This document shows, piece by piece, positions 5,870-50,755 of a stretch of DNA of 50,755 nucleotides. Source of the DNA: a virus (lineage: Duplodnaviria; Heunggongvirae; Uroviricota; Caudoviricetes); the IMG/VR virus record IMGVR_UViG_2908959467_000003, positions 1 through 50,755 of that record, one strand, 5' to 3'. Position numbers and translations under genes: made by a program. The first letter of the stretch is position 1, and every line of letters starts with the position of its first letter. Below the pieces are notes generated by a model. It made no database searches. It saw only the letters and a list, made by a program, of their open reading frames with translations, and had not been told where the DNA came from.

Positions 5870-5958
5870 CTATCAGTTACGGAGGATTTATGCAAAGAGA
5901 TATGATGAATATTGCATTCTACATATTTGGTTTTTGCACTTTCCTGGTGTTTGCAAAG

Positions 5959-9344: not shown

Positions 9345-9353
9345 GATTACCCC

Positions 9354-13271: not shown

Positions 13272-13503
<232 letters not shown>

Positions 13504-22771: not shown

Positions 22772-23244
22772 ACCTCAATCTCTCTGACCGTTCCGCCAGC
22801 CTCTTTGAATTTTGCAATCAGGCTGTCAGCCTTATGCTCGAACTGGCCATAACCAGCACCCGGCAGTGAAGCCCAGATATTGCTGCAACGGTCGATAGCC
22901 TGACGGATATCACCGCGATCAATCATCGGTAAAGCGCCACGCTCTTTAATCTGTTGCAGTGCCACAGCGTCCTGGCTTTTGGGAGAGAAGTCTTTCAGGC
23001 CAAGTTGCTTGCGGTAGGCATCCCACCAACGGGAAAGAAGCTGGTAACGTCCGGCTGCTGTTGATTTGAGTTTTGGGTTTATCGTGACAAGTTTGCGAGG
23101 GTGATCGGAGTAATCAGTGAATAGCTCTCCGCCTACAATGACGTCATAACCATGATTTCTGGTTTTCTGTCGTCCGTTATCAGTTCCCTCTGACCACGCC
23201 AGCATATCGAGGAACGCCTTACGTTGATTATTGATTTCCACCAT
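22768..23244 (-). CDS. R: Endolysin, lambda R-type lytic transglycosylase (158 aa)
   Basis: [39 protein letters not shown].. near-identical to recalled lambda R. Confidence 0.9.
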
Positions 23245-30020: not shown

Positions 30021-30900
30021 CGTGTTCACCCTCACGAACTTTCAGGTAGGTATTATCGTTAAGCAGGAAATCAAATCCCTTTTTGTGCCAGACGGTTCCG
30101 CGTTGATGGTTTGGACGCTCTTCGAACATCCATCGGCAATTTTCGCCTACGTAGCTCAAATAATTTCTCCAGTCCTGCATCGTGAACCCATGCCCGTCAA
30201 GCTGGCGGGTTATCACTCCGGCTTTGCGCCAGAACGTTCGGATCTGGTTTTTACGCTTGTCATTCAGTGCGCGGATTTTTGGCGCTTCAGGAAGGATTTC
30301 GTGGTAAGCATCGACAACATCCTGACAGCTAACGGAAGGTTTTTTCTTGTCAGACTTTTTGTCTGCTGCGGTACTCTCTAATACGTCAGTATTAGAGATA
30401 TTATTTATATTATTGTTTATGGACAACCGTTGGACAACCGTTGGACAATCTCCGCTGAGAGGCGCGCCATTACTGGTGTTTGCGTTGGACAACCGTTGGA
30501 CAACCGTTGGACAATTTTTTGCCTGAAAATCGTCATATTTAACGATTGTAAACAGGCTAAATTTCTTCCCCATCGAGCAAATATTAAGCATCCCTTTCGA
30601 CTCAAAAGTCCGTAATAAGCTCCGAACTTTGTTGTCGGGGATGAATGTTTCTCTGACCAGCGACGGGCGTCCAGTTATCATCTGACCGCGATCAACAGTT
30701 ATCGTACCGATATCCGTATTGACGACAGTAGATTCGTGATTAGCCTTGAGGATTAAGTGAAGCCAAAGATGTACTGCCTGAGAGTCCTTATAGAGCCTGC
30801 TGTCCATAAACTGGCGGTGTATAGAGACATACCCCATACTGGATGCCTCCTGATGTTGTACAGGGTTATGCCTGTAATCAGCTAACTTAACGACGCCCAT
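30010..30900 (-). CDS. Replication initiator, lambda O / P22 gene 18-like (296 aa), contains ori
   Basis: Position upstream of helicase; the gene encodes the iteron cluster (protein repeat CPTVVQRLSN x2). Confidence 0.7.
   Translation of the reverse strand: MGVVKLADYRHNPVQHQEASSMGYVSIHRQFMDSRLYKDSQAVHLWLHLILKANHESTVVNTDIGTITVDRGQMITGRPSLVRETFIPDNKVRSLLRTFESKGMLNICSMGKKFSLFTIVKYDDFQAKNCPTVVQRLSNANTSNGAPLSGDCPTVVQRLSINNNINNISNTDVLESTAADKKSDKKKPSVSCQDVVDAYHEILPEAPKIRALNDKRKNQIRTFWRKAGVITRQLDGHGFTMQDWRNYLSYVGENCRWMFEERPNHQRGTVWHKKGFDFLLNDNTYLKVREGEHDDR
30385..30514. repeat. Origin-like iteron array: 11-bp TTGGACAACCG repeats in two triplets plus adjacent AT-rich tract
   Basis: ggacaaccgttggacaaccgttggacaa (30421..30448) and the same again at 30485..30514; AT-rich 30385..30420. 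Confidence 0.7.
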
Positions 30901-35898: not shown

Positions 35899-36504
35899 AT
35901 GAGCAAAGAATTTTACGCAAGACTGGCAGCTATTCAGGAGAATCTGAACGCGCCAAAGAATCAGTACAACTCATTCGGCAAATATAAATACAGAAGCTGC
36001 GAAGACATTCTTGAAGGCGTTAAGCCGTTACTGAATGGCCTGTTTTTATCAATCAGCGATGAAGTTGTGTTGATTGGTGATCGGTATTACGTGAAAGCCA
36101 CGGCAACTATTACTGATGGCGAAAACAGTCATACAGCAACCGCTCTTGCACGAGAGGAAGAAAGCAAGAAAGGAATGGATTCTGCACAAGTTACGGGAGC
36201 TACAAGCTCTTATGCACGCAAGTATTGCCTCAATGGTTTGTTCGGCATTGATGATGCGAAAGATGCAGATACAGACGAGCATAAACATCAGCAGAACGCA
36301 GCAGCAAAGCAATCAAAACCATCACCTACACCTGAACAGGTTCTAAAAGCATTCACTGACGCAGCAATGCAGAAAAACACCGTGGAAGAGCTTAAACAGG
36401 CGTTCGCCAAAGCGTGGAAGATGCTCGAAGGCACACCGGAGCAGCACAAAGCGCAGGACGTTTACAACATCAGACGAGACGAATTAGAAGGAGCGGCTGC
36501 TTAA
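35899..36504 (+). CDS. erf: Erf single-strand annealing recombinase (201 aa)
   Basis: MSKEFYARLAAIQENLNAPKNQYNSFGKYKYRSCEDILEGVKPLL.. matches recalled P22 Erf; start at internal ATG. Confidence 0.85.
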   Translation: MSKEFYARLAAIQENLNAPKNQYNSFGKYKYRSCEDILEGVKPLLNGLFLSISDEVVLIGDRYYVKATATITDGENSHTATALAREEESKKGMDSAQVTGATSSYARKYCLNGLFGIDDAKDADTDEHKHQQNAAAKQSKPSPTPEQVLKAFTDAAMQKNTVEELKQAFAKAWKMLEGTPEQHKAQDVYNIRRDELEGAAA

Positions 36505-36887
36505 TGGCACATTCGATTACTGTAAGGCTAAACAAGCCCGCAAGAGAGTTTCAGGCCGGGGAAAATATCGGATTCAACATCCGTGCTGGCGTTCAGTATT
36601 ACGATCGCCAGACAAAAAAGAAAGAATGGACAAACTACAGCGCCGTTGTATTTGCCAAGCCGGGAGCGCAAGCGGATTACTACCGTAGTGTTCTTGTTGA
36701 AGGTGGCATTGTAGAAATTACCGGAGAAAACATCAGGGTTGATGTTTATCAGGGGCAAAATGGTCAATCAATCACTCTTGAATTACTGAATGCAAAGATT
36801 GGATTTGCAGCTTCAGGAAATGGCTCGCAGCAGCAAAGTAGTAACCAGCAGAACACTCCTGTATACGACGATTCCATCCCATTCTGA
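36504..36887 (+). CDS. SSB-like single-stranded DNA-binding protein (127 aa)
   Basis: OB-fold-like pattern and SSB-type acidic tail ..VYDDSIPF; start overlaps erf stop (TAATG). Confidence 0.65.
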   Translation: MAHSITVRLNKPAREFQAGENIGFNIRAGVQYYDRQTKKKEWTNYSAVVFAKPGAQADYYRSVLVEGGIVEITGENIRVDVYQGQNGQSITLELLNAKIGFAASGNGSQQQSSNQQNTPVYDDSIPF

Positions 36888-36910
36888 TTCAGAAAAATAA
36901 GGATTCCATT

Positions 36911-37207
36911 ATGCCAGCGCCTCTGCATGGTGCGGATGACCCGCGCCGCTGTTCCGGCAATTCCGTATCGGAGGTGCTGGATAAATTCAGGAAAAACTAC
37001 GACCGGATAATGTCGCTACCGCAGGAAACGAAAGAGGAAAAGGAATTTCGCCATTGTATATGGCTTGCAGAGAAAGAAGAACGCGAGCGAATTTACCAGA
37101 CATCAATCCGACCATTCCGCAAAGCCACATATACCCACTTCCCTGAATATATCGACCCACGCCTGCGTAATTACTTCTCACGCTATGGCGCTATCAGTAA
37201 TGACTGA
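36911..37207 (+). CDS. Hypothetical protein (98 aa)
   Basis: Early-left ORF, no motif recognised. Confidence 0.4.
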
Positions 37208-37217
37208 GGAATTTACA

Positions 37218-37382
37218 ATGAGAGGACTTGCATACAATCCCGGCATTCTTCCGGCAGAAATGATTATTCGCCAACGCGTAAAGCCAATGCCATCGAGAGA
37301 GGAATTGCTTAAGAGAAATTCTTTTCCATCAGTGAATCAAAACAAATATCTGAATGCGATGTGGCGGAGTGGGAAGAAATGA
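37218..37382 (+). CDS. Small hypothetical protein (54 aa)
   Basis: ATG with GAGGAA RBS. Confidence 0.3.
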
Positions 37383-37402
37383 AACAAATGTAACTAATTG
37401 AG

Positions 37403-37810
37403 ATGGATGGTTTTCTGAAAGGTAAATGCTTCCCACGAGATTTAAAGGTTAACGAAACAAACGCTGAATATCTGGTGCGTAAGTTCGGTGAGCTTGAATC
37501 AAAACTGGAAACGGCGTTGCGGGAGTGTCGTTCTGCTGGAATCACGATTGATAACCTTGAGGCTAAATGCGCGAAGATGGCTGCAGAAAATACCTCGCTT
37601 AAGCAATCTGAGAAGGAATTTAATGACTTTTGTCGTGAGGAGTTTGGCGAATGGGAAGATGATGTTACTGAAACCCCAGCCACCGATGCTTTCCTGGCTG
37701 AAGTACGGGCGCAGGGGGTAGAGATGTTTGCTGACCATCTGTTGTGCCCAGACCTTGATGACACTATCCGTGACTTTGCTGCCCAGCTTCGCAAAGGAGG
37801 CAACCAGTGA
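37403..37810 (+). CDS. Hypothetical protein (135 aa)
   Basis: Early-left ORF. Confidence 0.4.
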   Translation: MDGFLKGKCFPRDLKVNETNAEYLVRKFGELESKLETALRECRSAGITIDNLEAKCAKMAAENTSLKQSEKEFNDFCREEFGEWEDDVTETPATDAFLAEVRAQGVEMFADHLLCPDLDDTIRDFAAQLRKGGNQ

Positions 37811-37974
37811 GCGAAATTAATTACCAGGCACTGCGTGAGGTGGCGGAACGTGCAATTCCAGCAATGGAACGCCTGTTAATGTTGCCAGATGATGATGATT
37901 TGTTAAGTGAACAGGAACTTAAAGATTACGGTGTGGATATTGATGCGCTCAACGCCTTCAAATTTCTGACCTGA
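37807..37974 (+). CDS. Small hypothetical acidic protein (55 aa, GTG start)
   Basis: GTG preceded by AAGGAGG 7 nt upstream. Confidence 0.3.
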   Translation: MSEINYQALREVAERAIPAMERLLMLPDDDDLLSEQELKDYGVDIDALNAFKFLT

Positions 37975-37983
37975 CCAGAAACC

Positions 37984-38517
37984 GTGCTGGCGCTGCTGGA
38001 TGAGCTGGAAAGAAACCAGCAATACATCAAACGCCGCGACCAGGAGAACGAGGATATTGCGCTTACGGTTGGGAAGCTGCGCGTTGAGCTTGAAGCAGCA
38101 GAGAACAACCTTATTGATAGTGAATGCCATGTTGCTGAACTGGAAGAAGCGCTACGCGATAAGCAGGCGTTACTTGAAGCCTCTGAAAAGCGCAACGCAA
38201 AATTACAAAGCGAGAATGCATACATCCGCAACCGGTTCAAAGAACTGGACCTGTTAATCGGGAAAAACATTCTGGTCATGCAGGCTGCCATTATCGAATG
38301 GCAGGCAACTGGCGACGCTAAGAGCGGACTGGCATGGATTTATAACACACTGTTTGGCCCTGGCGAATTACCGGACGAATCTGAGAAAGATGCTCAGGCC
38401 TACTTTAATCGCAAATATGCACCGATTGACGAAAAGCTTATGGCGCTTCACAAGTGGTTTTGGGAACAAAGTGAAGCCGAGCGCGCCGCCGCCAACATTG
38501 GTGTGAAGGGGAAGTGA
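37984..38517 (+). CDS. Hypothetical coiled-coil protein (177 aa; start uncertain)
   Basis: Heptad-rich N-terminal half; the track start is a non-ATG codon with no good RBS. Confidence 0.4.
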   Translation: MLALLDELERNQQYIKRRDQENEDIALTVGKLRVELEAAENNLIDSECHVAELEEALRDKQALLEASEKRNAKLQSENAYIRNRFKELDLLIGKNILVMQAAIIEWQATGDAKSGLAWIYNTLFGPGELPDESEKDAQAYFNRKYAPIDEKLMALHKWFWEQSEAERAAANIGVKGK

Positions 38518-38518
38518 G

Positions 38519-38710
38519 ATGAACGGACAAATCTCAATTGTTCGACCGGGAGCATGTGACGATCGCGAGATACGCATGATTATTCGTCTGGCGATGGGGA
38601 AAACAATAACTGTTCTCATTACTCCTGAAAATCTCGCATTAGCATTAACAGGAAAGTCAGACCTTCCAGTAGAGCTAAAGCTGCGAAATATTGAGATTAA
38701 AGTGAAATAG
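38519..38710 (+). CDS. Hypothetical protein (63 aa)
   Basis: ATG with GAAGGGGAAG RBS. Confidence 0.4.
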   Translation: MNGQISIVRPGACDDREIRMIIRLAMGKTITVLITPENLALALTGKSDLPVELKLRNIEIKVK

Positions 38711-38712
38711 TT

Positions 38713-39099
38713 ATGAATACTCTTACCAAAGAATGGTTACAGAACACGATTACCAGCATTGAGTCAGCACGGGATGAAATACCGTTCGGACTCGATGAAG
38801 ATCAAAACAACATGCTTACCGCATTAAAAATTGCACTGGCATCACTGGGAGCAGAACCAGTTGCTTATATTTTCAAACATCCGGCCGGGAAATTATTCTG
38901 GGCTTTAACGGATGAAAGCAATAAAGATCAATCGGACGTTATTCCTGTTTATGCCGCCCCTCCAGTGCCAGTAGTACCTGAAGAAAAACCAATGCCTAAC
39001 CCTCTTAAAATGTACGCGGTCGATGCTGTTGCCGCTATTGCAGAGGTGAGAGGCTGGAACTCCTGCCGCGCCGCCATGCTTAAGGGAGATAAATCATGA
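38713..39099 (+). CDS. Hypothetical protein (128 aa)
   Basis: Early-left ORF; proline-rich linker. Confidence 0.4.
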   Translation: MNTLTKEWLQNTITSIESARDEIPFGLDEDQNNMLTALKIALASLGAEPVAYIFKHPAGKLFWALTDESNKDQSDVIPVYAAPPVPVVPEEKPMPNPLKMYAVDAVAAIAEVRGWNSCRAAMLKGDKS

Positions 39100-39377
39100 T
39101 TAATCGTACCAAGCTGGAGCACATCCTCGAATATGCCAGACAGCAGAGGCGCTTTGGTCAGCATTGCAAAATTCCGCCAGGAGATATGGTTGAAATCGTG
39201 GAGATTGCCATGCGCAAGGCTGGCAACTCTCCGGTAACTCCGGATGGCTATGCGGACATGCTGCAGCGCTGGCTGGTGTTTGGGATAGGCATGCTAAAAG
39301 CGGGTAGCCAGTTACCACGAAATCTAATCGCTGAAACCAAAGCCATGGTTGCAGCATTACAGCAGGAGGATGAATGA
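39096..39377 (+). CDS. Hypothetical protein (93 aa)
   Basis: ATG with AAGGGAGA RBS. Confidence 0.4.
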   Translation: MINRTKLEHILEYARQQRRFGQHCKIPPGDMVEIVEIAMRKAGNSPVTPDGYADMLQRWLVFGIGMLKAGSQLPRNLIAETKAMVAALQQEDE

Positions 39378-39604
39378 TGAGACGCTCAAGTTGGGATGCT
39401 CGCCTTGATAAGCGCATGAATATCGAGAAGCTAGAAGAACAAGGTCTTATCGCTGACAGTATGGAAGTTAGAAGGAGTCTTGTTGAACGAGTTATGAGAG
39501 GAGAAATAACTCCAGAGCAGTCCAGGGAAGAACTGAAACGGATTCAGAGAAATGCCAAGCGCAATGGACTTAAAACCAGAAACCAGGCATGGAGAGAAGG
39601 TTGA
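39374..39604 (+). CDS. Hypothetical basic protein (76 aa)
   Basis: Last sizeable gene of the early-left operon. Confidence 0.4.
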   Translation: MMRRSSWDARLDKRMNIEKLEEQGLIADSMEVRRSLVERVMRGEITPEQSREELKRIQRNAKRNGLKTRNQAWREG

Positions 39605-39637
39605 TGGCTAAATCCGCAGCAGAACGCAACTAACAAA

Positions 39638-39692
39638 CCTCGCACCGTCGAGGTTTTCTTTTATCTGAACTCGCTACGGCGAGTTTTGTTTT
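39638..39692 (+). terminator. Tandem terminator hairpins at the end of the early-left operon
   Basis: CCTCG-CACCGT-CGAGG + TTTTCTTTT, then AACTCGC-TACG-GCGAGTT + TTGTTTT. Confidence 0.5.
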
Positions 39693-39705
39693 ATGGAGAT
39701 GATAA

Positions 39706-39873
39706 ATGCACTTCCGAGTCACAGGTGAATGGAATGGAGAACCATTCAACAGAGTTATCGAAGCAGAGAACATCAACGACTGCTATGACCACTGGATGAT
39801 ATGGGCGCAGATAGCACATGCAGACGTAACCAATATTCGAATTGAAGAACTGAAAGAACACCAAGCCGCCTGA
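39706..39873 (+). CDS. Small hypothetical protein (55 aa) bracketed by terminators
   Basis: ATG with GGAGATGA RBS. Confidence 0.35.
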   Translation: MHFRVTGEWNGEPFNRVIEAENINDCYDHWMIWAQIAHADVTNIRIEELKEHQAA

Positions 39874-39888
39874 TGGCGGTTTTTTTAT
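39865..39888 (+). terminator. Rho-independent terminator
   Basis: GCCGCC-TGAT-GGCGGT followed by T7. Confidence 0.55.
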
Positions 39889-39896
39889 TACCTGAT

Positions 39897-39912
39897 TTGC
39901 AGGTTCGATTCC
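39897..39912 (+). other. 16-nt match to the T-arm region of tRNA-Arg (argW): TTGCAGGTTCGATTCC
   Basis: Sequence read directly; argW comparison is from memory. tRNA similarity stops on both sides, so not a tRNA gene. Confidence 0.55.
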
Positions 39913-39931
39913 CTATTCGGAGATAGCACTC

Positions 39932-40132
39932 ATGCAACACGAACTACAACCTGATTCACTGGTTGATTTGAAATTCATCATGGCCGATACTGGCTTCGGT
40001 AAAACCTTCATCTATGACCGGATTAAGTCCGGCGACCTGCCTAAAGCCAAAGTTATCCACGGGCGAGCAAGATGGTTATATCGTGACCATTGTGAATTCA
40101 AAAATAAGCTCTTAAGCCGCGCCAATGGGTAA
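39932..40132 (+). CDS. torI: Excisionase / recombination directionality factor, TorI/AlpA-like (66 aa)
   Basis: 66-aa winged-helix-type protein (..IMADTGFGKTFIYDRIKSGDLPKAKV..RARWLYRD..) between the two argW-like segments. Confidence 0.65.
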   Translation: MQHELQPDSLVDLKFIMADTGFGKTFIYDRIKSGDLPKAKVIHGRARWLYRDHCEFKNKLLSRANG

Positions 40133-40205
40133 AATAGCGGGTAAAATTTTTTTCACATCTAAAAAACACCATTCCAATCAATCCCCTGCCGCTTCAAGTA
40201 GATGT

Positions 40206-40220
40206 CTGCAGGGGACACCA
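40206..40220 (+). other. Putative att core: 15-nt match to the 3' terminus of argW (CTGCAGGGGACACCA)
   Basis: Exact 3'-terminal tRNA-Arg sequence including CCA; no tRNA body upstream; 160 bp upstream of the second integrase. Confidence 0.6.
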
Positions 40221-40380
40221 TGAACACTTCTCACTAAGTCCAATTAATTCCATAACTCACTGTTTTAACTGATATCATCTCCTTATACTCGTCCAGCAAA
40301 GTACCATTATTTCTAATGGAATCTATACATCTTTGCGTATAACATTGTGTATAACTGAGTTCGATCTTTTTTCTATACAC

Positions 40381-41556
40381 ATGCTGCTATCTGACATCCA
40401 AATAAAAAGAGCAAAACCGAAGGACAAACCCTATACGCTTAACGATGGTATGGGGCTATCACTCCTGATCGACACAGCGGGCAGTAAAGGCTGGCGTTTT
40501 CGCTATCGCTTTGCAGGTAAGCCTAAGATGATTTCCTTTGGCGTATATGGCGATGTGTCGTTGGCACAGGCACGTACCAAACGTGATGAAGCGCGTTCGA
40601 TGTTAGCCAAAGGGATAAACCCAAGTGAAGCCAGAAAAGCAGATAAGATTGCTTTGCAGTTCGCGCATGAGAACAGCTTTGAGTCTGTGGCCAGAGAATG
40701 GCACTCATCGAAAAAAGCCACCTGGTCAGAGGGTTATGCAAAAGAGGTTCTCAATTGTATGGAAAAGGATATTTTTCCTTTTATCGGCCAGCGCCCAATT
40801 GAGCAGATTGAACCATTAGAACTGCTAACCGTCCTGCAAAAAATAGAGAAAAGAGGTGCGCTAGAGCAAACCAGTAAGATCCGCCGCCGCTGTGGTGAAG
40901 TGCTTCGTTATGCTGTTGCCACTGGTAGAGCAAAGTATAATTTTGCACCCGATTTAGCTATCGCACTCAACAAACCTAAAACCCAACACTTCCCGTTCCT
41001 GACTGAAAGCGAGTTGCCCGAGTTCGTTAATGCTCTGGATAACTATCAGGGCAGTTTAGTTACCAAATACGCCACGCAGCTGTTGATGCTAACAGGCGTG
41101 CGAACAATTGAACTACGTGCAGCGGAATGGGCTGAGTTTGATTTAGATAATGCCTTATGGGAGATCCCCAAAGAACGGATGAAGAAACGCCGCCCCCATC
41201 TGGTTCCGTTATCAACTCAGGCGATCAATATCCTGAAAAAGCTGCAAGAAATAACAGGGAATTACAGCCTCGTTTTCCCTGGCCGAAATGACGTCAGGAA
41301 ACCAATGAGCGAAGCCAGCATCAACAAAGTGATAAAACTACTGGGTTATCACGGTCGGTTAACGGGTCACGGTTTCAGGCATACCATGAGCACCATCTTG
41401 CATGAGCATGGGTTTGAAAGTGCCTGGATTGAAATGCAGCTTGCGCATGTTGATAAGAACTCTATTCGAGGTACTTACAATCATGCGCAATATATTAAAG
41501 ATCGACAAGTAATGATGGAATGGTACGCTAGCTTATTAAATACGACCTGCTATTAA
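40381..41556 (+). CDS. Tyrosine integrase, P4 family (391 aa)
   Basis: MLLSDIQIKRAKPKDKPYTLNDGMGL.., ..RRRCGEVLRYAVATGRAKYNFAPDLA.., ..HGFRHTMST..; paralogous to the int at 1..1158. Confidence 0.85.
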   Translation: MLLSDIQIKRAKPKDKPYTLNDGMGLSLLIDTAGSKGWRFRYRFAGKPKMISFGVYGDVSLAQARTKRDEARSMLAKGINPSEARKADKIALQFAHENSFESVAREWHSSKKATWSEGYAKEVLNCMEKDIFPFIGQRPIEQIEPLELLTVLQKIEKRGALEQTSKIRRRCGEVLRYAVATGRAKYNFAPDLAIALNKPKTQHFPFLTESELPEFVNALDNYQGSLVTKYATQLLMLTGVRTIELRAAEWAEFDLDNALWEIPKERMKKRRPHLVPLSTQAINILKKLQEITGNYSLVFPGRNDVRKPMSEASINKVIKLLGYHGRLTGHGFRHTMSTILHEHGFESAWIEMQLAHVDKNSIRGTYNHAQYIKDRQVMMEWYASLLNTTCY

Positions 41557-42486
41557 ATCCAGCATGAAACAAATATGGTGAGTAATTTGATACTGTTTGT
41601 TTTTTGGCAACCCAGGGAAATGCCTTACAGTTGGTTGACTATTGTAATAATAATAGTTAAGACCAATGTTGCTGCCAAACTGGGTTGGATGTTGGGGAAC
41701 AAGATTTGTAATTTGATCTGAAACATCTAAAAATTTTGCAGTAACATTTGAACTTCCTCGTTGCGTGTTGCTTGATACAAAATGACGAATCCAAACTGTA
41801 TTCGCTTGTAAATTCTTGAACACCAAATGTGCGGCAACAGCAGAAGGTTGACCACCTCCAAGATCTAGTACCTGGCCAGTAATTGTATAATCGCCAAATC
41901 CTAAGTAATTTTGTCCCACGAATTGATGTGCGTGCGTGAAAAGTTCCGGCCCATTATAATCAGCATTTTTTGCTAACTTTCTAAAGTTATCGCTAATAAT
42001 AATTAACTTCGACAAAGGAAGAAGAGCGCACTGATTAGGAAGCATTTTATTATTTAAAACAACATGATAACTAATCAATTGATTTGTCGCCAACAACTGA
42101 ATATCAGAGTTGGATAATGATGGATTATCATATAGAAGTGCAACTCGTCTATTTAAGTTAGCATTCAACCAATTATTAATATCATTAATCGTTGTATTGG
42201 GCTGAATAAGATATCCAGAGATGATATTGTTTTTATTTGTTAATACACTTGATAAATTTTGATTTAAAGTTAAGACGTTATTGTGTGAAGAAAAATCTTC
42301 CTGATAAGGATTAAGGATAACAATTATGTCAGAATTCCAAACATTTAAACATGTTAATAAATTTCTCGTATTGACGTTAATTGGTTCTAAAATTGGTAGC
42401 AGACCATTTAGGCTAACTCCCTTCGCAACGAGGTCCCTAAGGCATAATAACTCTGTACTTCTCGCATACAAATATGGGCTATACAT
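41536..42486 (-). CDS. Cargo protein B (316 aa), unknown function; second gene of an AT-rich two-gene operon
   Basis: N/S/L-rich low-GC ORF, 21 nt after gene A; no recognised motif; 3' end overlaps the convergent int by 21 bp. Confidence 0.6.
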   Translation of the reverse strand: MYSPYLYARSTELLCLRDLVAKGVSLNGLLPILEPINVNTRNLLTCLNVWNSDIIVILNPYQEDFSSHNNVLTLNQNLSSVLTNKNNIISGYLIQPNTTINDINNWLNANLNRRVALLYDNPSLSNSDIQLLATNQLISYHVVLNNKMLPNQCALLPLSKLIIISDNFRKLAKNADYNGPELFTHAHQFVGQNYLGFGDYTITGQVLDLGGGQPSAVAAHLVFKNLQANTVWIRHFVSSNTQRGSSNVTAKFLDVSDQITNLVPQHPTQFGSNIGLNYYYYNSQPTVRHFPGLPKNKQYQITHHICFMLDLIAGRI

Positions 42487-42507
42487 AACTTACAACTCCT
42501 GAGGATA

Positions 42508-43389
42508 TCAACAAATTTTAATTTTTACATCCATCAAATTCATGATGAATTCTTTTTGCTTTCTTGATAATGGTGTTGCATAACCTAAAACACGTAAACA
42601 TGCTGGAAGAGAATAAATATAATCCAAAAAAACTTTGTCGTTACATCTTTTTTTCATAGCAGAGATAAAGTATTTATTTGCTATGTTTAATGGCATCTGC
42701 ATGAATATCTCTTTACAATATTCATAAACCAATCCATTAGGCATATTTATTTTAGTTGAAGTGTAATCTTCTATTATAGCTAAGAACTCTTCCTTTCTAA
42801 GAACTGAAAACAAGCTGTCACTTTTAATATAATCAATATTTGAATCTGCCTCCTTAATGACACTCAATTGATCTTTTTTATTCAAAACCATAACTCCCAC
42901 TCTGGGGAGATTTAAAGCACAATATTTACTTGCATACTCTGGATGTGTAACTATATACACTTTATCAAAAACATCCAAATAATCAGGGGCTTGAGTAATC
43001 AACCTTTTTGGTGAATCATACTCTGTCTTAATCTCGTAAGCTGTAGACGTACCATTAAACACCGCAACATCCACTATAGAGTTTTTAATTGGTAACTCTA
43101 TGGACGACGAACTTGTTTTTGGGCTGTGCTTACCGAATATTATTTTATTGACAAGTGCTGTCTTATAAACATATTCATTTCTATAATTCAGACGCAAAAA
43201 ATCATATAATGATGTAAATAAATCCCTTAGTGAAATCTCATGTTCATTATTATCATTGTTTGAAAACAGTGTTTCATAGCAGTAAGAATCAAAACTCCCA
43301 AATAAATCCGAAATATCCTTACCTTTTGCTAAGGATGAAAAAATGGGGCGACGGAAAAATTTAGCATATTCCTTTTTATTATGACTCAT
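42508..43389 (-). CDS. Cargo protein A (293 aa), putative PD-(D/E)xK nuclease-fold protein
   Basis: ..SIELPIKNSIVDVAVFNGTSTAYEIKTEYD.. gives the E / hydrophobic-D / E-x-K arrangement; AT-rich. Confidence 0.6.
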   Translation of the reverse strand: MSHNKKEYAKFFRRPIFSSLAKGKDISDLFGSFDSYCYETLFSNNDNNEHEISLRDLFTSLYDFLRLNYRNEYVYKTALVNKIIFGKHSPKTSSSSIELPIKNSIVDVAVFNGTSTAYEIKTEYDSPKRLITQAPDYLDVFDKVYIVTHPEYASKYCALNLPRVGVMVLNKKDQLSVIKEADSNIDYIKSDSLFSVLRKEEFLAIIEDYTSTKINMPNGLVYEYCKEIFMQMPLNIANKYFISAMKKRCNDKVFLDYIYSLPACLRVLGYATPLSRKQKEFIMNLMDVKIKIC

Positions 43390-44069
43390 TACTCATACTC
43401 TATAAACATCATGCAATTTGATAAGTTATGACGAATTCTCACCATCCAGTTACTACCTGTACATACTAATCAAAAAAAACGAGTACGCAAGATACGAAAG
43501 TACTTTTCTTGTTCACCAGTTAGCTTACCTTGATCCTCACCAGCGACTGGAAGATAGGTAGCAGTATATGTGGAAACCTTCCCCTAGCTAGGTCTACAAA
43601 CGTAGTTTGGGCATTTAGGCTCCACGATTCACGGTTTGACACGGCCTGATATCTGCACATTCGTTTTGATATGCAGCAATCGTGAAAAAGGGAAAATATA
43701 CGCTCGACAGACCAAAACGGCACTACACCGCACCCGCCTGCGGTTTTCATATCACTAAAAATTTTCAGCCTGGATTTTTTACAAACGATACCGCCAGTCC
43801 GTGCCAGTCCTCGAGATGTACTGCGATACAGGAACTGAAAAGAATGAAAAGAAATTCATTTTTTTTCAGTTTTACTGTCCGTCGAATCTATGGCCTGAAT
43901 ACGCAACTCTATGATATTAAATGGATAATTAATTTTAGGTGTGTGATTTTATGAAGGTTTGTGAAACATGAAGAAGATAACCAGTTGAAAAATAATAATT
44001 TTATGACCGTATAAACTGAAATCCTGTGTTCAGGTTCCGGGAACAGATCGGCCATTCCCGACGCATACT

Positions 44070-44342
44070 TTACCCATTCTTTTGCGCAGCCAGCAGCAAC
44101 TTTAAAGCCTTTTCCCGTTCCTCGGGTGGAATTGCATCAATCAGCTCTTTAACCCTTCCCTGCCCGTTCAGCGCGCTTGGACTAACGGAATGGGAGAAAG
44201 CAACATTCATCACAAACGAGTGACCGCACTCCACATTAGAGCAATAGCAGTACACATCGTACAGTTGTGGGTGTTTCCTGTTTGTTTTACCTATCCGTGC
44301 TACTGCCTGACATGTGGGGCAGTACATTCTCATCATCTTCAT
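44070..44342 (-). CDS. ogr: Ogr/Delta-family zinc-finger late-gene activator (90 aa; start may be an internal Met)
   Basis: C-x2-C...C-x4-C pattern (MYCPTCQ..CYCSNVEC) as in P2 Ogr / P4 Delta. Confidence 0.7.
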   Translation of the reverse strand: MKMMRMYCPTCQAVARIGKTNRKHPQLYDVYCYCSNVECGHSFVMNVAFSHSVSPSALNGQGRVKELIDAIPPEEREKALKLLLAAQKNG

Positions 44343-44408
44343 CGTTCTGTGCCCTATACTGTTGCCCGCCAGAAGAAGGGATTTGGATCCCTACCTCTTG
44401 TTCTGAAC

Positions 44409-44598
44409 GTGTAACACTGGTAACACGTGTAACGCTATTGATTTAAAAGGATTTAATCTGTTACCAGTTAGCAAAATCAAGAGGTAACGCGTGGTAACAC
44501 ACCATTTTTTGTTACCTCTGTTACCAGTCAGTATTTTTGACTGGTAACACTGAAGAACCGCATCAGTAACGGGTGTTACCTCTGTTACCAGTGTTACC
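44409..44598. repeat. Iteron cluster: at least 12 copies of (G)GTAACAC / GTGTTACC in about 190 bp, P4 crr/ori-like
   Basis: Repeats read directly; motif TGTTACC is one base from the recalled P4 alpha-binding octamer TGTTCACC. Confidence 0.65.
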
Positions 44599-44624
44599 TC
44601 ATAAAAATAAGACTCACGCGATAA

Positions 44625-47312
44625 TCACTCAGGTTCAGCGCTTCCCAGTACCTGTGTATTGAACTGGTACACACGTTTAAGCCCTATTTCTGGCAGGCGA
44701 ATGCTGTTTTGCGTCCGGCCATCTTCACCGGGTTTCAGCCAGCCCGCGTCCACACACAACCTGGCCACCTTACGCGAGTCAAATCCCTTACAGATCTCCT
44801 TCCAGCCTGACGGGAGAACGTAGAACGTCACAACCGGCTCTGTCACGTTGTCTCCTTTATCGACTTTTCTGAATCCCATCATTGAAACAGGCCGGTTCCT
44901 GTCGTCATTCCAGTCAGCAAACCGACTGAACTGATTACGCGTCATGAAGTCCCGAACCTGTTCAAGTGCCGCTTTATCTTCCTGATTAGCTGTATGGCCC
45001 CGGTCAGCCATCCATGCAGCCAGACAGCTTTGAGCGGCACGAAAGGCCTCTCCCTCCGGCCATCCTGTGATGCCCGCTTTTGTGGCCAGCTCCCCGGCCA
45101 TCGCAACCAGAGCAAAACGGGTAACAGCCCGGCCAACCTGATTCCCGGCATTTTCCGGCGTCAGCCTTCGGGTATACTCTTTCAATAAGGCTTTCGCCTG
45201 ACTGGTCAGTTCCGGCAGATCAGCGGTCAGGCAATACAGCCAGTCGCGGAATGGTGCACCATGATAATGCGCTACGTGCTGCTCAAGATGCTCAGCCAGG
45301 GTTTTCCCGCTACTGAAGCCATGAAGTTCTTCAAACACGCCATACTTGCCCGAATCGCTTGGGATCTGGATCATTCTGACCTCAACCCCGGCATACGTAC
45401 GTTCCCCGGCGCTTGCCGCATGCTCTACCAGTGACAGTTCCCCGGTAGACAGAAACAACAGATTCCAGCGGTTGGTTTCCCTTACCGAACCATCTGTTCT
45501 GGCTCTGGCTTTGCCCTGCCCGTTAGCCAGCATATAAGCGATATTCCCCGCCTCCCTGCCGTCAACCTCCCGGATTTCATCCAGCATCAGCGTGGCATCA
45601 TTGCGGCGGCTCGCCGTTCCTTCTAAGGCATTCCCCGTCGCCCGCCACGTATGCCAGAAATCTGTTCCACCACATACTGATGCAGCCACTTTCATCGTCG
45701 TGGTTTTACCGTCTGTGGATTCCCCTTTGAGGTGATAACCTCCACCGCCGATACCAACCAGTTTCAGAAGGGGGGCAGCAAATGCCAGACTCACCGCAAA
45801 GGCAAGACGGGCATTCTTTATGCAATAACGGCCTATATTTTCACGCCAGCCCTCTGATGTGCCGCTGACACGAAAATCACGCCCCTGCACACTCGATGTT
45901 TGTAAGATGACTGACTGGGCTTCGCGCCCTATCACTTCATCCTGGAGAACGTAAACCCCGCCGTGCCAGCCAGTTTTATTCACACAGGTTACTTTTCTGT
46001 CCGGTTTACACAGCGAGATATATTCCATCAGGAATGCTCTGGCCATGCCATTAATGTTGATGTAAGAAAGCCCGTTAACCAGCAGAACGCGGCGCAGTTC
46101 TTCCCCGCTACCGCCCAGCATCTCCATCGGCATTGCCCATTTACGGCTGTTTCCGTTGGTATCTTCCCATTCCAGCAAACGCCCGTAATTACTTCCATCA
46201 GCATCACTGGTGATTGCCGTCACCCGCAACGGACTGCAAATTTTGATATTACGTATCTCTGTATCACCATCAGACTTATTAACCAGCTTGTCGTACCACA
46301 AATATTCTTTTGTCAGCCGGAACCCTTCTGGTAAACGGGTCTGCCCTTTGCCATGCAGCGTCATTTCTTCACGAAAGGCATCTCTCGCCCGTTCTTTCCC
46401 CACTTCCTGCCGATAATCATCCCAGTCAGCCTTATGGCGTACCGGAGGGAGCGTTACCCAGCCATCCACCGCTTTGGCGGCTTTCTCTGCCTGAATACGC
46501 CCGGTGTTTTCTTTGCCGTCAGCCAGATCATTATCTCCGGCCAGAATGATCCGAGTTTCCGGCCAGCGTTTTCGGATCTGCTCCGTCACCTTCAGTAAAT
46601 TGGTGGCAGCGACAGCCGCCACGATCCATCCTTCAGTCAGCAGACTGACGGTAAGCGCCGTGGCAAAACCCTCAGTGATAATCACCTGTTCAGGTGTTTC
46701 AGCGGGTATATCGGTCAGGGCAATGAATGCGCCAGACAGCTGGCTACCGGGCAGCAGACTTTTATCCCCGTCAGGATTGATAAGCTGGCCACCAGTAATA
46801 TTCCCGGAAATATCCGTCAAAGGCAGCAGTAATGAACCGGTGGAAAATGTTATTCCGGCCAGATTCAAAGGCTGTGACAGCAAGGGAAGTGAATACCCGT
46901 GTAAGCCCTTATTTGTCAGATAGACCGGCTCACCATTGCAGGACTGCTGTCTGAGTCTGGTATATCGCTCCGCGCCCGCTTCTTTTCCTGCGGCCTTTTT
47001 CCTGGCTGGCAATGCGGGCTTCTCCTGTATTTCTGGTAATGCAAGCGCCTCAGATACCATCCCGGCGACTTCTTTTATCTTTCTTCCTGTCACCAGACGA
47101 ACCAGATCAAGACCATCGCCATGACCGCACTGATTACAAAACCACGTCCCTCGCCCCGCTTTATCGTCCAGTCGAAAACGATCTTTTCCACCACAGGCAG
47201 GGCAAGCCCCATGATGTCCTGCGGACGGTACTTTAATACCTAATGCTGACAGGATATAAGGCCAGCGCCCAATTGCAGCTCCGGAAATCGTGGATACAGA
47301 CGGTGTTTTCAC
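44625..47312 (-). CDS. Primase-helicase, P4 alpha-type (895 aa)
   Basis: N-terminal zinc-binding primase motif (CPACGGKDRFRLDD..WFCNQCGHGDG), central P-loop (GESTDGKTTT). Confidence 0.85.
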   Translation of the reverse strand: MKTPSVSTISGAAIGRWPYILSALGIKVPSAGHHGACPACGGKDRFRLDDKAGRGTWFCNQCGHGDGLDLVRLVTGRKIKEVAGMVSEALALPEIQEKPALPARKKAAGKEAGAERYTRLRQQSCNGEPVYLTNKGLHGYSLPLLSQPLNLAGITFSTGSLLLPLTDISGNITGGQLINPDGDKSLLPGSQLSGAFIALTDIPAETPEQVIITEGFATALTVSLLTEGWIVAAVAATNLLKVTEQIRKRWPETRIILAGDNDLADGKENTGRIQAEKAAKAVDGWVTLPPVRHKADWDDYRQEVGKERARDAFREEMTLHGKGQTRLPEGFRLTKEYLWYDKLVNKSDGDTEIRNIKICSPLRVTAITSDADGSNYGRLLEWEDTNGNSRKWAMPMEMLGGSGEELRRVLLVNGLSYININGMARAFLMEYISLCKPDRKVTCVNKTGWHGGVYVLQDEVIGREAQSVILQTSSVQGRDFRVSGTSEGWRENIGRYCIKNARLAFAVSLAFAAPLLKLVGIGGGGYHLKGESTDGKTTTMKVAASVCGGTDFWHTWRATGNALEGTASRRNDATLMLDEIREVDGREAGNIAYMLANGQGKARARTDGSVRETNRWNLLFLSTGELSLVEHAASAGERTYAGVEVRMIQIPSDSGKYGVFEELHGFSSGKTLAEHLEQHVAHYHGAPFRDWLYCLTADLPELTSQAKALLKEYTRRLTPENAGNQVGRAVTRFALVAMAGELATKAGITGWPEGEAFRAAQSCLAAWMADRGHTANQEDKAALEQVRDFMTRNQFSRFADWNDDRNRPVSMMGFRKVDKGDNVTEPVVTFYVLPSGWKEICKGFDSRKVARLCVDAGWLKPGEDGRTQNSIRLPEIGLKRVYQFNTQVLGSAEPE

Positions 47313-47719
47313 AGCAGCACCTCCTGACCTTCCGGCTTCACAAATTCAAAACCTTCGGGTAGTTCGCCATCAGGTGCTCCGAAAATAATATCCCGGTAAA
47401 CCTCACGCATCTCTGTGACACCAAAAACTGACAGGCGAATATTTTCTGACATAAAGCCTGGTTTAAGCATTTTTTCCAGTTTCTCTGCGGCCAGTATGCA
47501 ACCAGCATCAGCCCCAAACTCATTCACCCACGGCATTTCAATATGGTAAATAATATTACTCACCACTTTTTCGTGGGAGAGTTCTATTCGTTCGCCATCT
47601 TCAATATAAACAGGTTCATTATGAACACGCACCATTAAGGAAATGAATGCATCAGCAATGTAGTAGCGTAAGACTGCTGTTCGTAAAGCATGCGCCTTTA
47701 AATTTTGATTATTATTCAT
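47309..47719 (-). CDS. Hypothetical protein (136 aa) upstream of the primase
   Basis: Overlaps primase start; position analogous to P4 epsilon/orf151. Confidence 0.45.
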   Translation of the reverse strand: MNNNQNLKAHALRTAVLRYYIADAFISLMVRVHNEPVYIEDGERIELSHEKVVSNIIYHIEMPWVNEFGADAGCILAAEKLEKMLKPGFMSENIRLSVFGVTEMREVYRDIIFGAPDGELPEGFEFVKPEGQEVLL

Positions 47720-47948
47720 CGCGCATCACTCCCTTAATTGTGCTGGTTTCCTTAACAACGCCATCCAGTTGTTCGGCAATACAGGCCACTAAAGCCGCAG
47801 CGCCTTCCGCTGAAACAGTTCTCGCTCCATTCACTGTGGGCACGGACAAGACCTCTGCAAGAAACTCACTGGCCAGTGCCGCCCGTAACAGACGACTCTC
47901 CCCCTGTTCACTCAATATGCAGCCTTGCTTAAAATTCATGGATTTCAT
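47712..47948 (-). CDS. Hypothetical protein (78 aa)
   Basis: Operon member; no motif. Confidence 0.4.
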   Translation of the reverse strand: MKSMNFKQGCILSEQGESRLLRAALASEFLAEVLSVPTVNGARTVSAEGAAALVACIAEQLDGVVKETSTIKGVMRDE

Positions 47949-48148
47949 GCAACCACCTCCCCGGCTCTTTTCACAGGGATACGGGCAGCAAAGCTCAGGA
48001 TAAATTCAGTGGCAAGTTTAAGGCGTGCAGCATGCTCGCATTCTGCGATTACACGCACAGGGCGTGGACGGGCATCACGGTCTGTACGGCGGACAGCCAG
48101 AAAGACAAAGGTAAATTCAGGGTGAGATAAAGCAGGGACTGTAGCCAT
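47945..48148 (-). CDS. Small hypothetical protein (67 aa), first gene of the alpha operon
   Basis: ATG at 48148 with GAAGGAGG RBS; the longer track ORF to 48535 is an unsupported extension. Confidence 0.4.
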   Translation of the reverse strand: MATVPALSHPEFTFVFLAVRRTDRDARPRPVRVIAECEHAARLKLATEFILSFAARIPVKRAGEVVA

Positions 48149-48160
48149 AATGGCAACCTC

Positions 48161-48425
48161 CTTCAGATAGCGGGTAACGCTACCACCGGAGTTCCTACGC
48201 TCATGGGTGGTAGCCCAGACGGGGGTAGGAATACCGGCTCTGAAGGATACCGGCCAGCCCGAAAGCTGCCCCGCCTGGACTACCATAATTCTGATGATGT
48301 GGCGTAAAAAATAAAAAAATACAATCAGCCACCACACCATAAATTTTAGGTGAGTCAAAGCTGCGACACAAAAAAACACGCCTGGCGCGTGTAGTATCGC
48401 CTTCAGATAACACGGGTTCCTACGC
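48161..48425 (-). promoter_or_regulatory. Candidate RNA immunity region (P4 seqA/cI/seqC-like) with internal terminator
   Basis: Two direct copies of CTTCAGATA..GTTCCTACGC (48401..48425, 48161..48200) flank a reverse-complement copy (48225..48247); hairpin + U7 at 48370..48392. Confidence 0.4.
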
Positions 48426-48577
48426 CCGGCTGCCGATTTTGCGGCAACCTTTAAACTATATCCCGCGCATTCCTGGTGAGGCAAGAAATTTATAACCGAA
48501 AACTGATCATTGCCTGGATTAATTAACGCTGGCATGCTTAAGCCTCTGCTTAAAAATAGTTCTTCATTTTTCCTGAT

Positions 48578-48608
48578 GCTGTAAACGAGACCCGCCTCTG
48601 AGCGGGTC
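48578..48608 (-). terminator. Hairpin terminator after capsid-like gene
   Basis: Minus-strand GACCCGC-UCAGAG-GCGGGUC followed by UCGUUUAC. Confidence 0.45.
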
Positions 48609-48622
48609 TTTCTGTCGCTAAG

Positions 48623-49627
48623 TCAATCCGCAAACGTCAGGGCGCTCTCATCGACAGCCGCGTACAGTTCAGGTTCACCGAGTGCATAACCTTCATTGCG
48701 CAGGTAGGAATGCACGTATTCACTGCTTTCATCATCAAACTCAGCACGAAACCAGCGTGTTATCGCCTGAGTGTAAATATGCAGATTATCCAGCGTCGTT
48801 ACTGCCAGACGCTTACCCGGCATAAACGGGGGAATAAACGCAAAGCGGCCAGCAACAGAACTTGTAGCCATCTGTGCCGCATTCACATCAGACGGGCGGT
48901 CTGCGGCATTAAATAACTTCAGGCGTTGATGTGCTGCCAGCTCTGCCCCAACCAGTACAACCAGACGAGGATCTTCACGAAACTGCTCAGCAATAAGCTC
49001 TGTAATCAGATGGTTGGCCAGAGCATCAATATTTTTCCAGGTGCCAGTCTCTCCCAGAGTGACAGGCTCAGAGATGATTTGCTTTCCGTTCCCGTAGGCT
49101 TTCGCCAGTGCATGCCAGCCAATATTGACATCCTCGCCTTTTTTATTGATTTCCGGGTTTGTAGTATTTGCAATCGACACACCATTGAAACCGACCCGCA
49201 GCATGTCCAGCGCATATGCCTGGGCAAAAAAGCTCTCAACCGTTTTCTCAAACTCATCCGGCACGCCGGTATGGTAAATATGAGACATATCGGAATAGCT
49301 GATCCGGGCGCAGGTATCCGTCTCTGTCAGAAAGAACTCCGTACCATTGATTGCCATTTTTTTGTGGAAACGGCCACCATCCACACGTCCGGTATACAGT
49401 TCACTGGCACCAATATTGACGGCATTACCTGACACGGCGTTAACATCACGTAGGGTAATATTTTTAATAAGCCACCCGGATTCCAGAATTGAGGTACGCA
49501 GTATATTTTCAGTAGGTTCGCTTAATGCAAAGCGTCTGTTTGATTCTTCCTGATAGTTAGTGCCAGTGACGAATTTATTATGATAACGACGTGCTGCGTC
49601 CGGCCTTTCAGTTTTGAAGGCATACAT
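48623..49627 (-). CDS. P2 gpN-family major capsid-like protein (334 aa)
   Basis: Blocks alignable to recalled P2 gpN (GFNGV, ..IGW.., DALANHLITELIAEQFREDPRLVVLVG, LDNLHIY); from memory, unverified. Confidence 0.5.
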   Translation of the reverse strand: MYAFKTERPDAARRYHNKFVTGTNYQEESNRRFALSEPTENILRTSILESGWLIKNITLRDVNAVSGNAVNIGASELYTGRVDGGRFHKKMAINGTEFFLTETDTCARISYSDMSHIYHTGVPDEFEKTVESFFAQAYALDMLRVGFNGVSIANTTNPEINKKGEDVNIGWHALAKAYGNGKQIISEPVTLGETGTWKNIDALANHLITELIAEQFREDPRLVVLVGAELAAHQRLKLFNAADRPSDVNAAQMATSSVAGRFAFIPPFMPGKRLAVTTLDNLHIYTQAITRWFRAEFDDESSEYVHSYLRNEGYALGEPELYAAVDESALTFAD

Positions 49628-49649
49628 AGTTTTTCACCTTTTTAAGTAT

Positions 49650-50510
49650 TTAAGAAAAGATTTTATTTTTGTACTCAGTAACCAGATTGTATTTCATTAC
49701 ATGCTCAACATAATCCCGGTCACTTACGACTGAACGTAATACATAATTATCTGCTCGATAGTACTCCCTGTAAGCCATAGCTCTTGCCATTCCACCGTTA
49801 TTTAATACATAACGATCAGTTGGAACGCTACAACGACTAATAATTTCACTCACGGAATCAGATAAAGACTTGAGTGCATCAGTAATAAATTTAATATCAC
49901 GGACAACGTCACTGTCATTAAATACAGAAATAAAATCAGCAGGGATCTGGCCGGATTGAGGAAATATATTCAGTAAACGCTTATCGATTCCCTTCCCAAT
50001 GTAGTTTCCTTCATCGGCCAGTACTCCCGGCAAAAGCTTGATCGTGCTCAATCGACTATGTTGTTCATTCAACCGGGAAACAGCCAGATGGTAATACCGT
50101 TCAGCATCCGCTCGTTCAGCATGCCCCATTTTATTCGTTTTGGCTTCAGCAATGCTACTGACGCCGTTTTTTGAGAATGTGCTTTTCCATGCAACTTCCG
50201 CATTTGTCACTTCACGCTGCCGGAAAGATAACTCTTCCTCTTCCTGACGACACAACTGGGCATAACGGCTCAGGAGCAGGTTGATCTCATTCGCCACAGT
50301 TTCCGTATCAGGTACTGTTAACCCCGTAAGTGAATACAGCTTTTCACCTTTAGCTCGCAGCTTATTCAGTGAATATATTTCAATAATACGCACAATACAG
50401 GCCGTGTCGCTATGAGTCTCTTTAAATGATCTTACTTTGTAACTATCTAACACCGACACATGTTCGTTCTTAATTGATGCCAATTTCTTCTTAAAAACAT
50501 TGTCAACCAT
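49650..50510 (-). CDS. Hypothetical protein (286 aa), AT-rich, unknown function
   Basis: Low-GC ORF between AlpA and the capsid-like gene; no recognised motif. Confidence 0.5.
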   Translation of the reverse strand: MVDNVFKKKLASIKNEHVSVLDSYKVRSFKETHSDTACIVRIIEIYSLNKLRAKGEKLYSLTGLTVPDTETVANEINLLLSRYAQLCRQEEEELSFRQREVTNAEVAWKSTFSKNGVSSIAEAKTNKMGHAERADAERYYHLAVSRLNEQHSRLSTIKLLPGVLADEGNYIGKGIDKRLLNIFPQSGQIPADFISVFNDSDVVRDIKFITDALKSLSDSVSEIISRCSVPTDRYVLNNGGMARAMAYREYYRADNYVLRSVVSDRDYVEHVMKYNLVTEYKNKIFS

Positions 50511-50527
50511 ATATTTGCCACCTCAAT

Positions 50528-50755
50528 TTAGGAGTTTAATTTTCTATTGAGAATATTCTTCTCTATCCATTCATTAACTTCATGCTCCACCCATGCAACA
50601 GAACGAGAACCGATAGAAACTTGGTTCGGAAATTCATCATTCTTTATCTTTAGATAAATTGTTGACTTGGGTAAGCCAGTCAAATTAATCACTTCTGATA
50701 TTCTCAGAAGTCTATATCTTTTTTGGGGTGCGTTTTCCCGAGGCAATAAGCTCAT
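50528..50755 (-). CDS. alpA: AlpA-family transcriptional regulator (75 aa)
   Basis: ..RLLRISEVINLTGLPKSTIYLKIKNDEFPNQVSIGSRSVAWVEHEVNEWI matches the AlpA HTH signature; start codon is the last 3 nt of the window. Confidence 0.75.
   Translation of the reverse strand: MSLLPRENAPQKRYRLLRISEVINLTGLPKSTIYLKIKNDEFPNQVSIGSRSVAWVEHEVNEWIEKNILNRKLNS

Follow-up and report, generated by a model that had tools for sequence, protein, structure and literature searches.

A mirror-symmetric iteron array downstream of a primase-helicase gene is the probable replication origin of a P4-like/PICI-type phage satellite

What does a dense cluster of short repeats directly downstream of a primase-helicase gene do for the element that carries it, and which protein reads it? 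The question was raised by a 50,755-nucleotide stretch of viral DNA (Caudoviricetes; IMG/VR record IMGVR_UViG_2908959467_000003; hereafter the window), for which an earlier note, made from the sequence alone, had reported a dense array of this kind, with at least 12 motif copies in both orientations, and had proposed that it was the replication origin or a cis-replication region. The cluster is real and far beyond chance. The core GTAAC/GTTAC occurs 13 times at 44411-44597, seven times on the + strand and six times on the − strand, against 0.37 copies expected per 200 bp from the background of 94 cores per 50.7-kb window, and 44410-44598 is the only 200-bp stretch of the window with at least five cores; the dense array directly downstream of the primase gene was thus confirmed. 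Over the whole window, GGTAACA was found 14 times where 4.1 copies were expected, and 0 of 100 shuffles got to 14. The copy number within the array depends on how strictly the motif is defined: GGTAAC is present ten times and GGTAACA/TGTTACC nine times, and the exact 8-mer as written in the earlier note, GGTAACAC/GTGTTACC, just five times, so that the count of at least 12 in both orientations stands for the cores, 12 of which are conserved iterons at positions kept in relatives, and not for the 8-mer. Oriented alike, the 12 main iterons have the consensus ASWGGTAACAS with an invariant GTAAC, with two alternating forms, ACTGGTAACA and AGAGGTAACA. Neither a DnaA box, with up to 1 mismatch allowed, nor an IHF consensus was present in 44300-44700, Rfam gave no RNA family match over the array, and a DNA search of the phage collection with the array returned zero matches.

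The putative origin (44410-44598) consists of the 12 conserved iterons in a dyad-symmetric 6+6 set, six per orientation, in the order >>> < >> | << > <<<, mirror-symmetric about ~44504. It begins on the side of the neighboring Ogr/Delta-like gene with a distal triplet on the + strand at 9-bp spacing (44410-44434; tGTAACA at 44410-16, GGTAACA at 44419-25 and tGTAACg at 44428-34). This is followed by a 24-bp AT-rich spacer (44436-44458) with a TTTAAATCAA-like conserved core, which is a candidate DNA-unwinding element: it reaches 80% AT in a 25-bp window and is AT-rich in 13/13 related loci, with a mean of 77% AT. The corresponding spacer towards the primase gene is GC-rich; the AT-rich segment is off-centre, on one side only. 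A single TGTTACC on the − strand (44459-44465), opposite in orientation to the distal triplet, precedes an inner pair on the + strand (44483-44499; GGTAACg at 44483-89 and GGTAACA at 44493-99). The dyad centre, computed from the iteron coordinates, falls in the CCATTTTTT tract between the inner pairs (44500-44509), the centre of the array being just a short T-tract. On the other side lie the inner TGTTACC pair on the − strand (44510-44525; copies at 44510-16 and 44519-25), a single GGTAACA on the + strand (44543-44549) that mirrors 44459-65, and the proximal, primase-side TGTTACC triplet on the − strand, again at 9-bp spacing (44574-44598; copies at 44574-80, 44583-89 and 44592-98). The last of these iterons ends at 44598, so that 26 nt separate it from the stop codon of the primase-helicase gene. 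The 13th copy, aGTAACg on the + strand (44565-44571), has no mirror partner and is not conserved (47.8% identity among 13 loci with GGTAACA-class arrays); it is probably non-functional.

The adjacent gene (44625-47312, − strand) encodes an 895-aa protein, here termed Pri-Rep, that combines a Zn-ribbon and Toprim primase, a DUF927 helicase, a helical linker and a C-terminal winged helix. Residues 1-317 form the Zn-ribbon/Toprim primase and are 39% identical to P4 alpha; nothing beyond these residues aligned with P4 alpha. Residues 331-614 are the DUF927 helicase; in sequence comparison the helicase core matched SCCmec Cch (5dgk) and, with an E-value of 1.5e-13, SaPIbov1 Rep (8tch). When residues 645-895 were modelled with AlphaFold (pLDDT 78), Foldseek matched the model to both of these structures (8tch, E 3e-5; 5dgk, E 3.5e-4). 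Sequence identity between Pri-Rep and SaPIbov1 Rep is ~16%. The C-terminal domain (aa 790-895; 44628-44945, − strand), which is the proposed iteron reader, is predicted to be a winged helix whose nearest counterpart is the C-terminal domain of SaPIbov1 Rep. Comparison of the Pri-Rep C-terminal profile with the P4 alpha C-terminus using hhalign gave a probability of 0.2%. A protein search of the phage collection yielded partial matches only and no full-length relative of Pri-Rep.

Relatives were collected by a pattern scan with one genome per species, which gave 55 loci in over 20 genera of enterobacteria, encoding relatives of 60-93% identity; 52 of the loci have a readable primase stop and form the denominator of the array survey. 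The repeats, whose absence from related elements the earlier note had named as telling against its reading, were present with nearly the same spacing in 50 of these 52 loci. A dense array lies within ~100 bp of the primase stop in 47 loci, and in three it is found 1.15 kb downstream, past an inserted tyrosine-recombinase-like ORF; the two remaining loci are one contig that ends too early to tell and one truncated gene with no array. The iteron word falls into classes: (T)GGTAACA, the class of the window, in 21 loci, GGGTAACA in 3, GGTGTAACA in 10, GGTGGAACA in 8, TGGGAACA in 3, TGGATACA in 1, GGTTACA in 1 and TGTAGTACA in 3. In a 9-nt register the classes are 1-3 substitutions apart and all end in ACA, and the spacing >9>9>31<24>9>17<10<24>31<9<9< recurs in most of them with small variations. 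Among 13 GGTAACA-class loci from different genera, pairwise identity was 93.6% for iterons and 54.9% for spacers (Mann-Whitney p=1e-20). Array position, copy number and geometry are thus conserved across genera while the spacers drift. The three loci in which the inserted recombinase-like ORF splits primase and array are L038, L044 and L055, which belong to the TGGGAACA class and retain a 6+6-like geometry. L007 carries the name of a Firmicute ('Vagococcus sp. WN89Y'), probably through contamination or a mislabelled assembly; its primase is 81% identical to that of the window, and its array is a typical GGTAACA one.

The switches between iteron classes indicate which protein goes with the array. 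In Xenorhabdus, Proteus and Pectobacterium/Brenneria, proteins that are 94-97% identical overall are paired with different iterons: GGTAACA and GGTGTAACA in Xenorhabdus L010 and L014, which are 96% identical, GGGTAACA and GGTGTAACA in Proteus L019 and L017, and GGTAACA, GGTTACA and TGGATACA in Pectobacterium/Brenneria L021, L008 and L009. Within such pairs, differences cluster in the final ~55-95 residues, and a further group of them falls in the variable N-terminal 200 residues. Enrichment of differences in residues 836-889 over residues 200-835 was calculated by Fisher's test (L008/L021, p=1e-5; L009/L021, 8e-6; L017/L019, p=0.003; L010/L014, 0.004), and at matched core identity the C-terminal domains of same-motif pairs were 0.98 identical versus 0.91 for different-motif pairs; the pairs are phylogenetically non-independent, with ~4-5 independent switches visible. 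The GGTGTAACA to GGTGGAACA switch showed no significant C-terminal enrichment. In nucleotide sequence, divergence forms a block that covers the last 100-200 nt of the primase gene and the first ~200 nt downstream, and over the next ~700 nt, including the Delta-like gene, identity mostly returns to 85-99%. Because divergence in these near-identical pairs is limited to the array and the last ~50 codons of the primase gene, with flanks at 90-99% identity, the primase tail and not the Delta-like protein is the matched partner of the iterons. The co-variation, taken as a sequence pattern, identifies C-terminal domain and iterons as a matched pair, and is silent on whether the pair serves initiation or, for example, regulation only. 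Residue 866 is Arg in all proteins of the GGTAACA class and Lys in all GGGTAACA, GGTGTAACA and GGTGGAACA proteins; in the alignment, ~846, 850, 867-871 and 880 also track class. The model places these residues where the second helix begins and on the beta-hairpin wing; ~846, 850, 866-871 and 880 are candidate specificity residues.

Precedents for an iteron array of this kind are found in the staphylococcal pathogenicity islands and phage-inducible chromosomal islands. SaPI Reps are hexameric helicases that load themselves and use a C-terminal winged helix to recognise iterons of 5-6 nt; 6-12 iterons lie immediately downstream of rep, in opposed directions around an AT-rich region, and in SaPI5 primase and Rep are fused (PMC9371898). 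E. coli PICIs are organised in this way too, and a pri-rep-ori segment from one of them, EcCICFT073, drives plasmid replication (PMC6092414). General features of Gram-negative PICIs include an origin downstream of pri, capsid genes and C4/isrK matches, and their primases include DUF927 types (PMC10111431). The window element resembles SaPIbov1, SaPI5 (PriRep5) and EcCICFT073 in having the array, as these have their origin, immediately 3′ of the initiator gene; its short iterons are within the 6-12 range (12 here) and in opposed orientations; its initiator is a helicase with a predicted C-terminal winged helix related to that of SaPI Rep; and, like SaPI5, it has a primase fused to the helicase. 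It differs in having a primase module of the P4-alpha type (Zn-ribbon/Toprim), in that the AT-rich segment (44436-44458) is off-centre where that of SaPIs is described as central, and in that the iterons form an interleaved 6+6 mirror, unlike the mainly two opposed iteron sets (GTCTACC) of EcCICFT073. Membership of the EcCICFT073 replicon in the same family was rejected, its Pri-Rep being unrelated in sequence and its iterons different. The DUF927 helicase fold is also common to Pri-Rep and the SCCmec Cch/Cch2 helicases. An iteron plasmid origin of the RepA/Pi/TrfA type was likewise rejected on repeat size, initiator domains and absent DnaA boxes: the iterons here measure 7-9 bp and occur in both direct and inverted orientation, unlike the ~17-22-bp direct repeats of that type, and the initiator has primase and helicase domains, unlike WH1-WH2 Reps, which have no helicase activity.

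Judged by its organisation, the array belongs with the known PICI/SaPI origins in which iterons follow rep, and appears to be an unusually clear example of them. We consider it most probably the cis-acting replication origin of a ~10.5-kb P4-like/PICI-type satellite, read by the winged-helix tail of Pri-Rep; binding, melting, helicase loading and origin activity are what we infer from these features. The comparison with P4 ori/crr that the earlier note had suggested was made using the annotation of NC_001609. As in P4 crr, the iteron cluster lies directly downstream of the primase-helicase gene, and the iterons are short, in both orientations and at 9-bp tandem spacing. They belong to the same GGT..AACA series (GGTGAACA in P4, GGTAACA here, GGTGTAACA or GGTGGAACA in relatives), and the homologous N-terminal primase, the immunity RNA region and an orf106-like gene are common to both elements. 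The helicase and C-terminal DNA-binding parts have no detectable relation to P4 alpha. In P4, ori and crr are 4.5 kb apart with the same iterons in both, and crr consists of two 120-bp direct repeats with five iterons each; the window element has one cluster, made up of a single dyad-symmetric set of twelve. The P4 type-1 octamer TGTTCACC has zero copies in the array. The earlier note had reported a single copy at about 43511; it is present at 43510, and further copies are at 4569 and 30023. The copy at 43510 is put down to chance, since the three copies in the window compare with 1.5 expected and 20/100 shuffles did as well. The comparison therefore agreed in position and in the common primase module and failed for the octamer, the two clusters and the alpha-type DNA-binding domain. 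Membership in the P4 ori/crr system was rejected on these same three points (no octamer, no bipartite clusters and no C-terminal domain of the alpha type).

It might nonetheless be supposed that the array is a crr-like enhancer, which would bind the primase-helicase and be needed in cis while initiation took place at a separate origin elsewhere in the element. The likenesses of position, iteron orientation and 9-bp tandem spacing to P4 crr speak for this, as does an element that is otherwise P4-like (orf106-like gene, C4/isrK immunity region, Delta-like and AlpA-like genes). As the P4 origin has the iterons of crr, a second cluster would then be expected, but no second ori-like motif cluster was found in the window, in the complete JJ1887 element or within ±6 kb of nine related loci, and a single cluster points to an origin and not to a P4-style pair of ori and crr. 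The initiator, moreover, is SaPI-Rep-like, and that class has a single origin 3′ of rep (PMC9371898, PMC6092414). We therefore regard an enhancer of this type as unlikely; of the two roles that had been proposed, origin is favored.

Judged slightly less likely again is an operator or copy-control array, at which Pri-Rep binding would block read-through into the Ogr/Delta-like gene, autoregulate or 'handcuff' copies, and which would not be the initiation site. The array does occupy the gap between the primase gene and the Delta-like gene, in which no intrinsic terminator was found, and plasmid iterons commonly double as control sites. In addition, a TGT-N12-ACA element, the element type of P2 Ogr-dependent late promoters, overlaps the outermost iteron at 44399-44416; it is the sole copy in 40001-50755 and is centred ~65 bp upstream of the Delta-like start codon. 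This element is conserved only in close relatives, however, and one copy was found where ~2.6 would be expected from base frequency, so that it may be there by chance. PICI-like relatives without a Delta-like gene retain the same array after the primase, which ties the array to the primase and not to Delta, and a symmetric arrangement of twelve sites over 190 bp, together with an AT-rich segment, is more like an origin than an operator. A control role could exist alongside origin function. Least likely of all is that the array is bound by another protein (Ogr/Delta-like, AlpA-like, integrase arm-type or terminase) or is a structural palindrome or cruciform without a reader: several DNA-binding proteins are encoded in the element and the single-stranded DNA of the array region folds far better than shuffles (z = −7), but the fold score is a trivial consequence of the inverted iterons, the spacers are not conserved, switches of the iterons leave the Delta-like region as it is and are accompanied by changes in the primase C-terminus alone, no similarity to P4 cos was found, and the array is not an att arm, the ends of the element being ~4 kb and ~6 kb away.

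If the array is the origin, the C-terminal winged helix of each Pri-Rep subunit would read one iteron (nnGGTAACA, invariant core GTAAC), and the 6+6 mirror layout would gather subunits on each half-origin, possibly as one hexamer each. The AT-rich spacer (44436-44458) and/or the central T-tract would then melt, Pri-Rep would load itself as the replicative helicase, as reported for SaPI Reps, and its N-terminal primase would make primers, with host polymerase doing the remainder. What goes beyond the routine is the strict 6+6 mirror geometry, kept despite a rewritten iteron word, and the natural series of matched tails and iterons. More tentatively, and with a good deal less confidence than attaches to the origin itself, the 6+6 layout might be a loading template on which the six winged helices of a hexamer occupy the iterons of a half-origin, two hexamers assemble in this way, wing residues reprogram specificity and co-resident replicons are orthogonal. 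If this were so, the fixed mutual orientation of the hexamers would be a bacterial, self-loading analogue of double-hexamer origin licensing; few wing residues (e.g., Arg/Lys 866 and 880) would respecify the site, with all twelve iterons following in concert; and mutually orthogonal replicons would allow several satellites to share one cell. Three genomes with two elements were observed, Pantoea leporis (L042/L043), P. stewartii (L027/L053) and Enterobacter intestinihominis (L004/L050), and the iteron classes differ in 3/3. From the observed class frequencies, the probability of this by chance is roughly estimated at ~0.4; the two-element genomes fit selection for non-cross-reacting replicons and are only a hint of it, the sample being too small for significance.

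On the origin reading, an origin would be located for a satellite that is present in ~8% of complete E. coli genomes and whose family spans over 20 genera of enterobacteria. Initiator tails and the iterons matched to them would provide a natural mutagenesis table of how a winged helix reads a 7-9-bp site, and the fixed 6+6 geometry leads to a testable prediction on the assembly of a self-loading primase-helicase on DNA. 'P4-like' satellites, it appears, can carry a replicon of the SaPI-Rep type, and the ori and crr biology of P4 is for this reason not transferable to them by default.

The array lies in a ~10.5-kb phage satellite of the P4-like/Gram-negative-PICI type, as assigned from island gene content including P4-type immunity RNAs. 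In E. coli JJ1887 the island is situated between tRNA-Arg/yfdC and dsdC. The array was found in 448 of 5426 complete E. coli genomes (~8%), nearly always at ≥99% identity, and many of the E. coli genomes listed with it are ST131. The gene order in the window is integrase, sce7725/sce7726 pair, 76-aa ORF, Ogr/Delta-like zinc finger, array and primase-helicase, followed by a P4 orf106-like gene, a 78-aa ORF, an Ash/Icd-like ORF, a P2-family major capsid gene, a 286-aa ORF and an AlpA-like regulator. The satellite tyrosine integrase (40333-41556, + strand) marks one boundary side of the element. The Ogr/Delta-like zinc-finger gene (44070-44342, − strand) is downstream of the array with respect to primase transcription and shows no co-variation with the iterons, and the P4 orf106-like gene (DUF5375/phrog_5991; 47309-47719, − strand) is just upstream of the primase, as in P4. 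The immunity RNAs (C4 antisense RNA, isrK and c4-a1b1; 48203-48461, − strand) lie inside the Ash/Icd-like ORF. In Rfam, C4 antisense RNA (81 bits) and isrK (69.5 bits) were above their gathering scores and c4-a1b1 (43.8 bits) was slightly under its own, and window 48068-48463 is 71% identical in nucleotides to P4 8285-8707 (cI region); the satellite therefore has RNA immunity of the P4 type.

Several further observations were made on the satellite and its surroundings. The P2-family major capsid gene is full-length (334 aa, Pfam E 1e-66) and lies within 48623-50510 on the − strand; it and the adjacent 286-aa ORF, which has no family match, form a pair kept in ~25 related loci, and may provide the satellite's own small capsid or interfere with the helper. 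No sid/psu homologue was detected in the ~10.5-kb satellite, and no P2/P4 cos site was found in the window. Gene content between the Delta-like gene and the integrase varies: the window has the sce7725/sce7726 pair there (41536-43389, − strand), L061 a DUF2971 pair (4326-6159) and L062 a SduA_C (Shedu-like) gene (8044-9379). This slot resembles a hotspot of anti-phage defence genes; the annotation of P4 cII also names the sce7726 family. Lambdoid/P22-like prophage genes (ERF, anti-RecBCD, ead/Ea22 and TorI) lie immediately before the satellite integrase, in window 36000-40200, and no tRNA was found in window 38000-50755; the JJ1887 satellite, in contrast, directly follows tRNA-Arg. Together these observations suggest that a prophage and the satellite integrated in tandem at a single att site. 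Assembly contigs of ~10.5-10.8 kb gave no evidence of a free circle: L061 has chromosomal flanks, and the L062 contig has no terminal overlap and has tRNA-like sequence at its end. Upstream of the AlpA-like gene, repeats with a ~10-bp period were seen in L002 (AATAATGGTGA-like; 22560-22800, just past the window end) and in L062 (TAGTTAACAG-like; 90-150), and JJ1887 has a (GGGCT)n tandem repeat of ~12 units there; these may be sites for the regulator or integrase arm sites near attR. Elsewhere, the window has a perfect tandem repeat of TCTGGC (6.7 copies) at 13319-13358 and, at 30420-30514, two runs of the 11-nt unit TGGACAACCGT ~35 bp apart.
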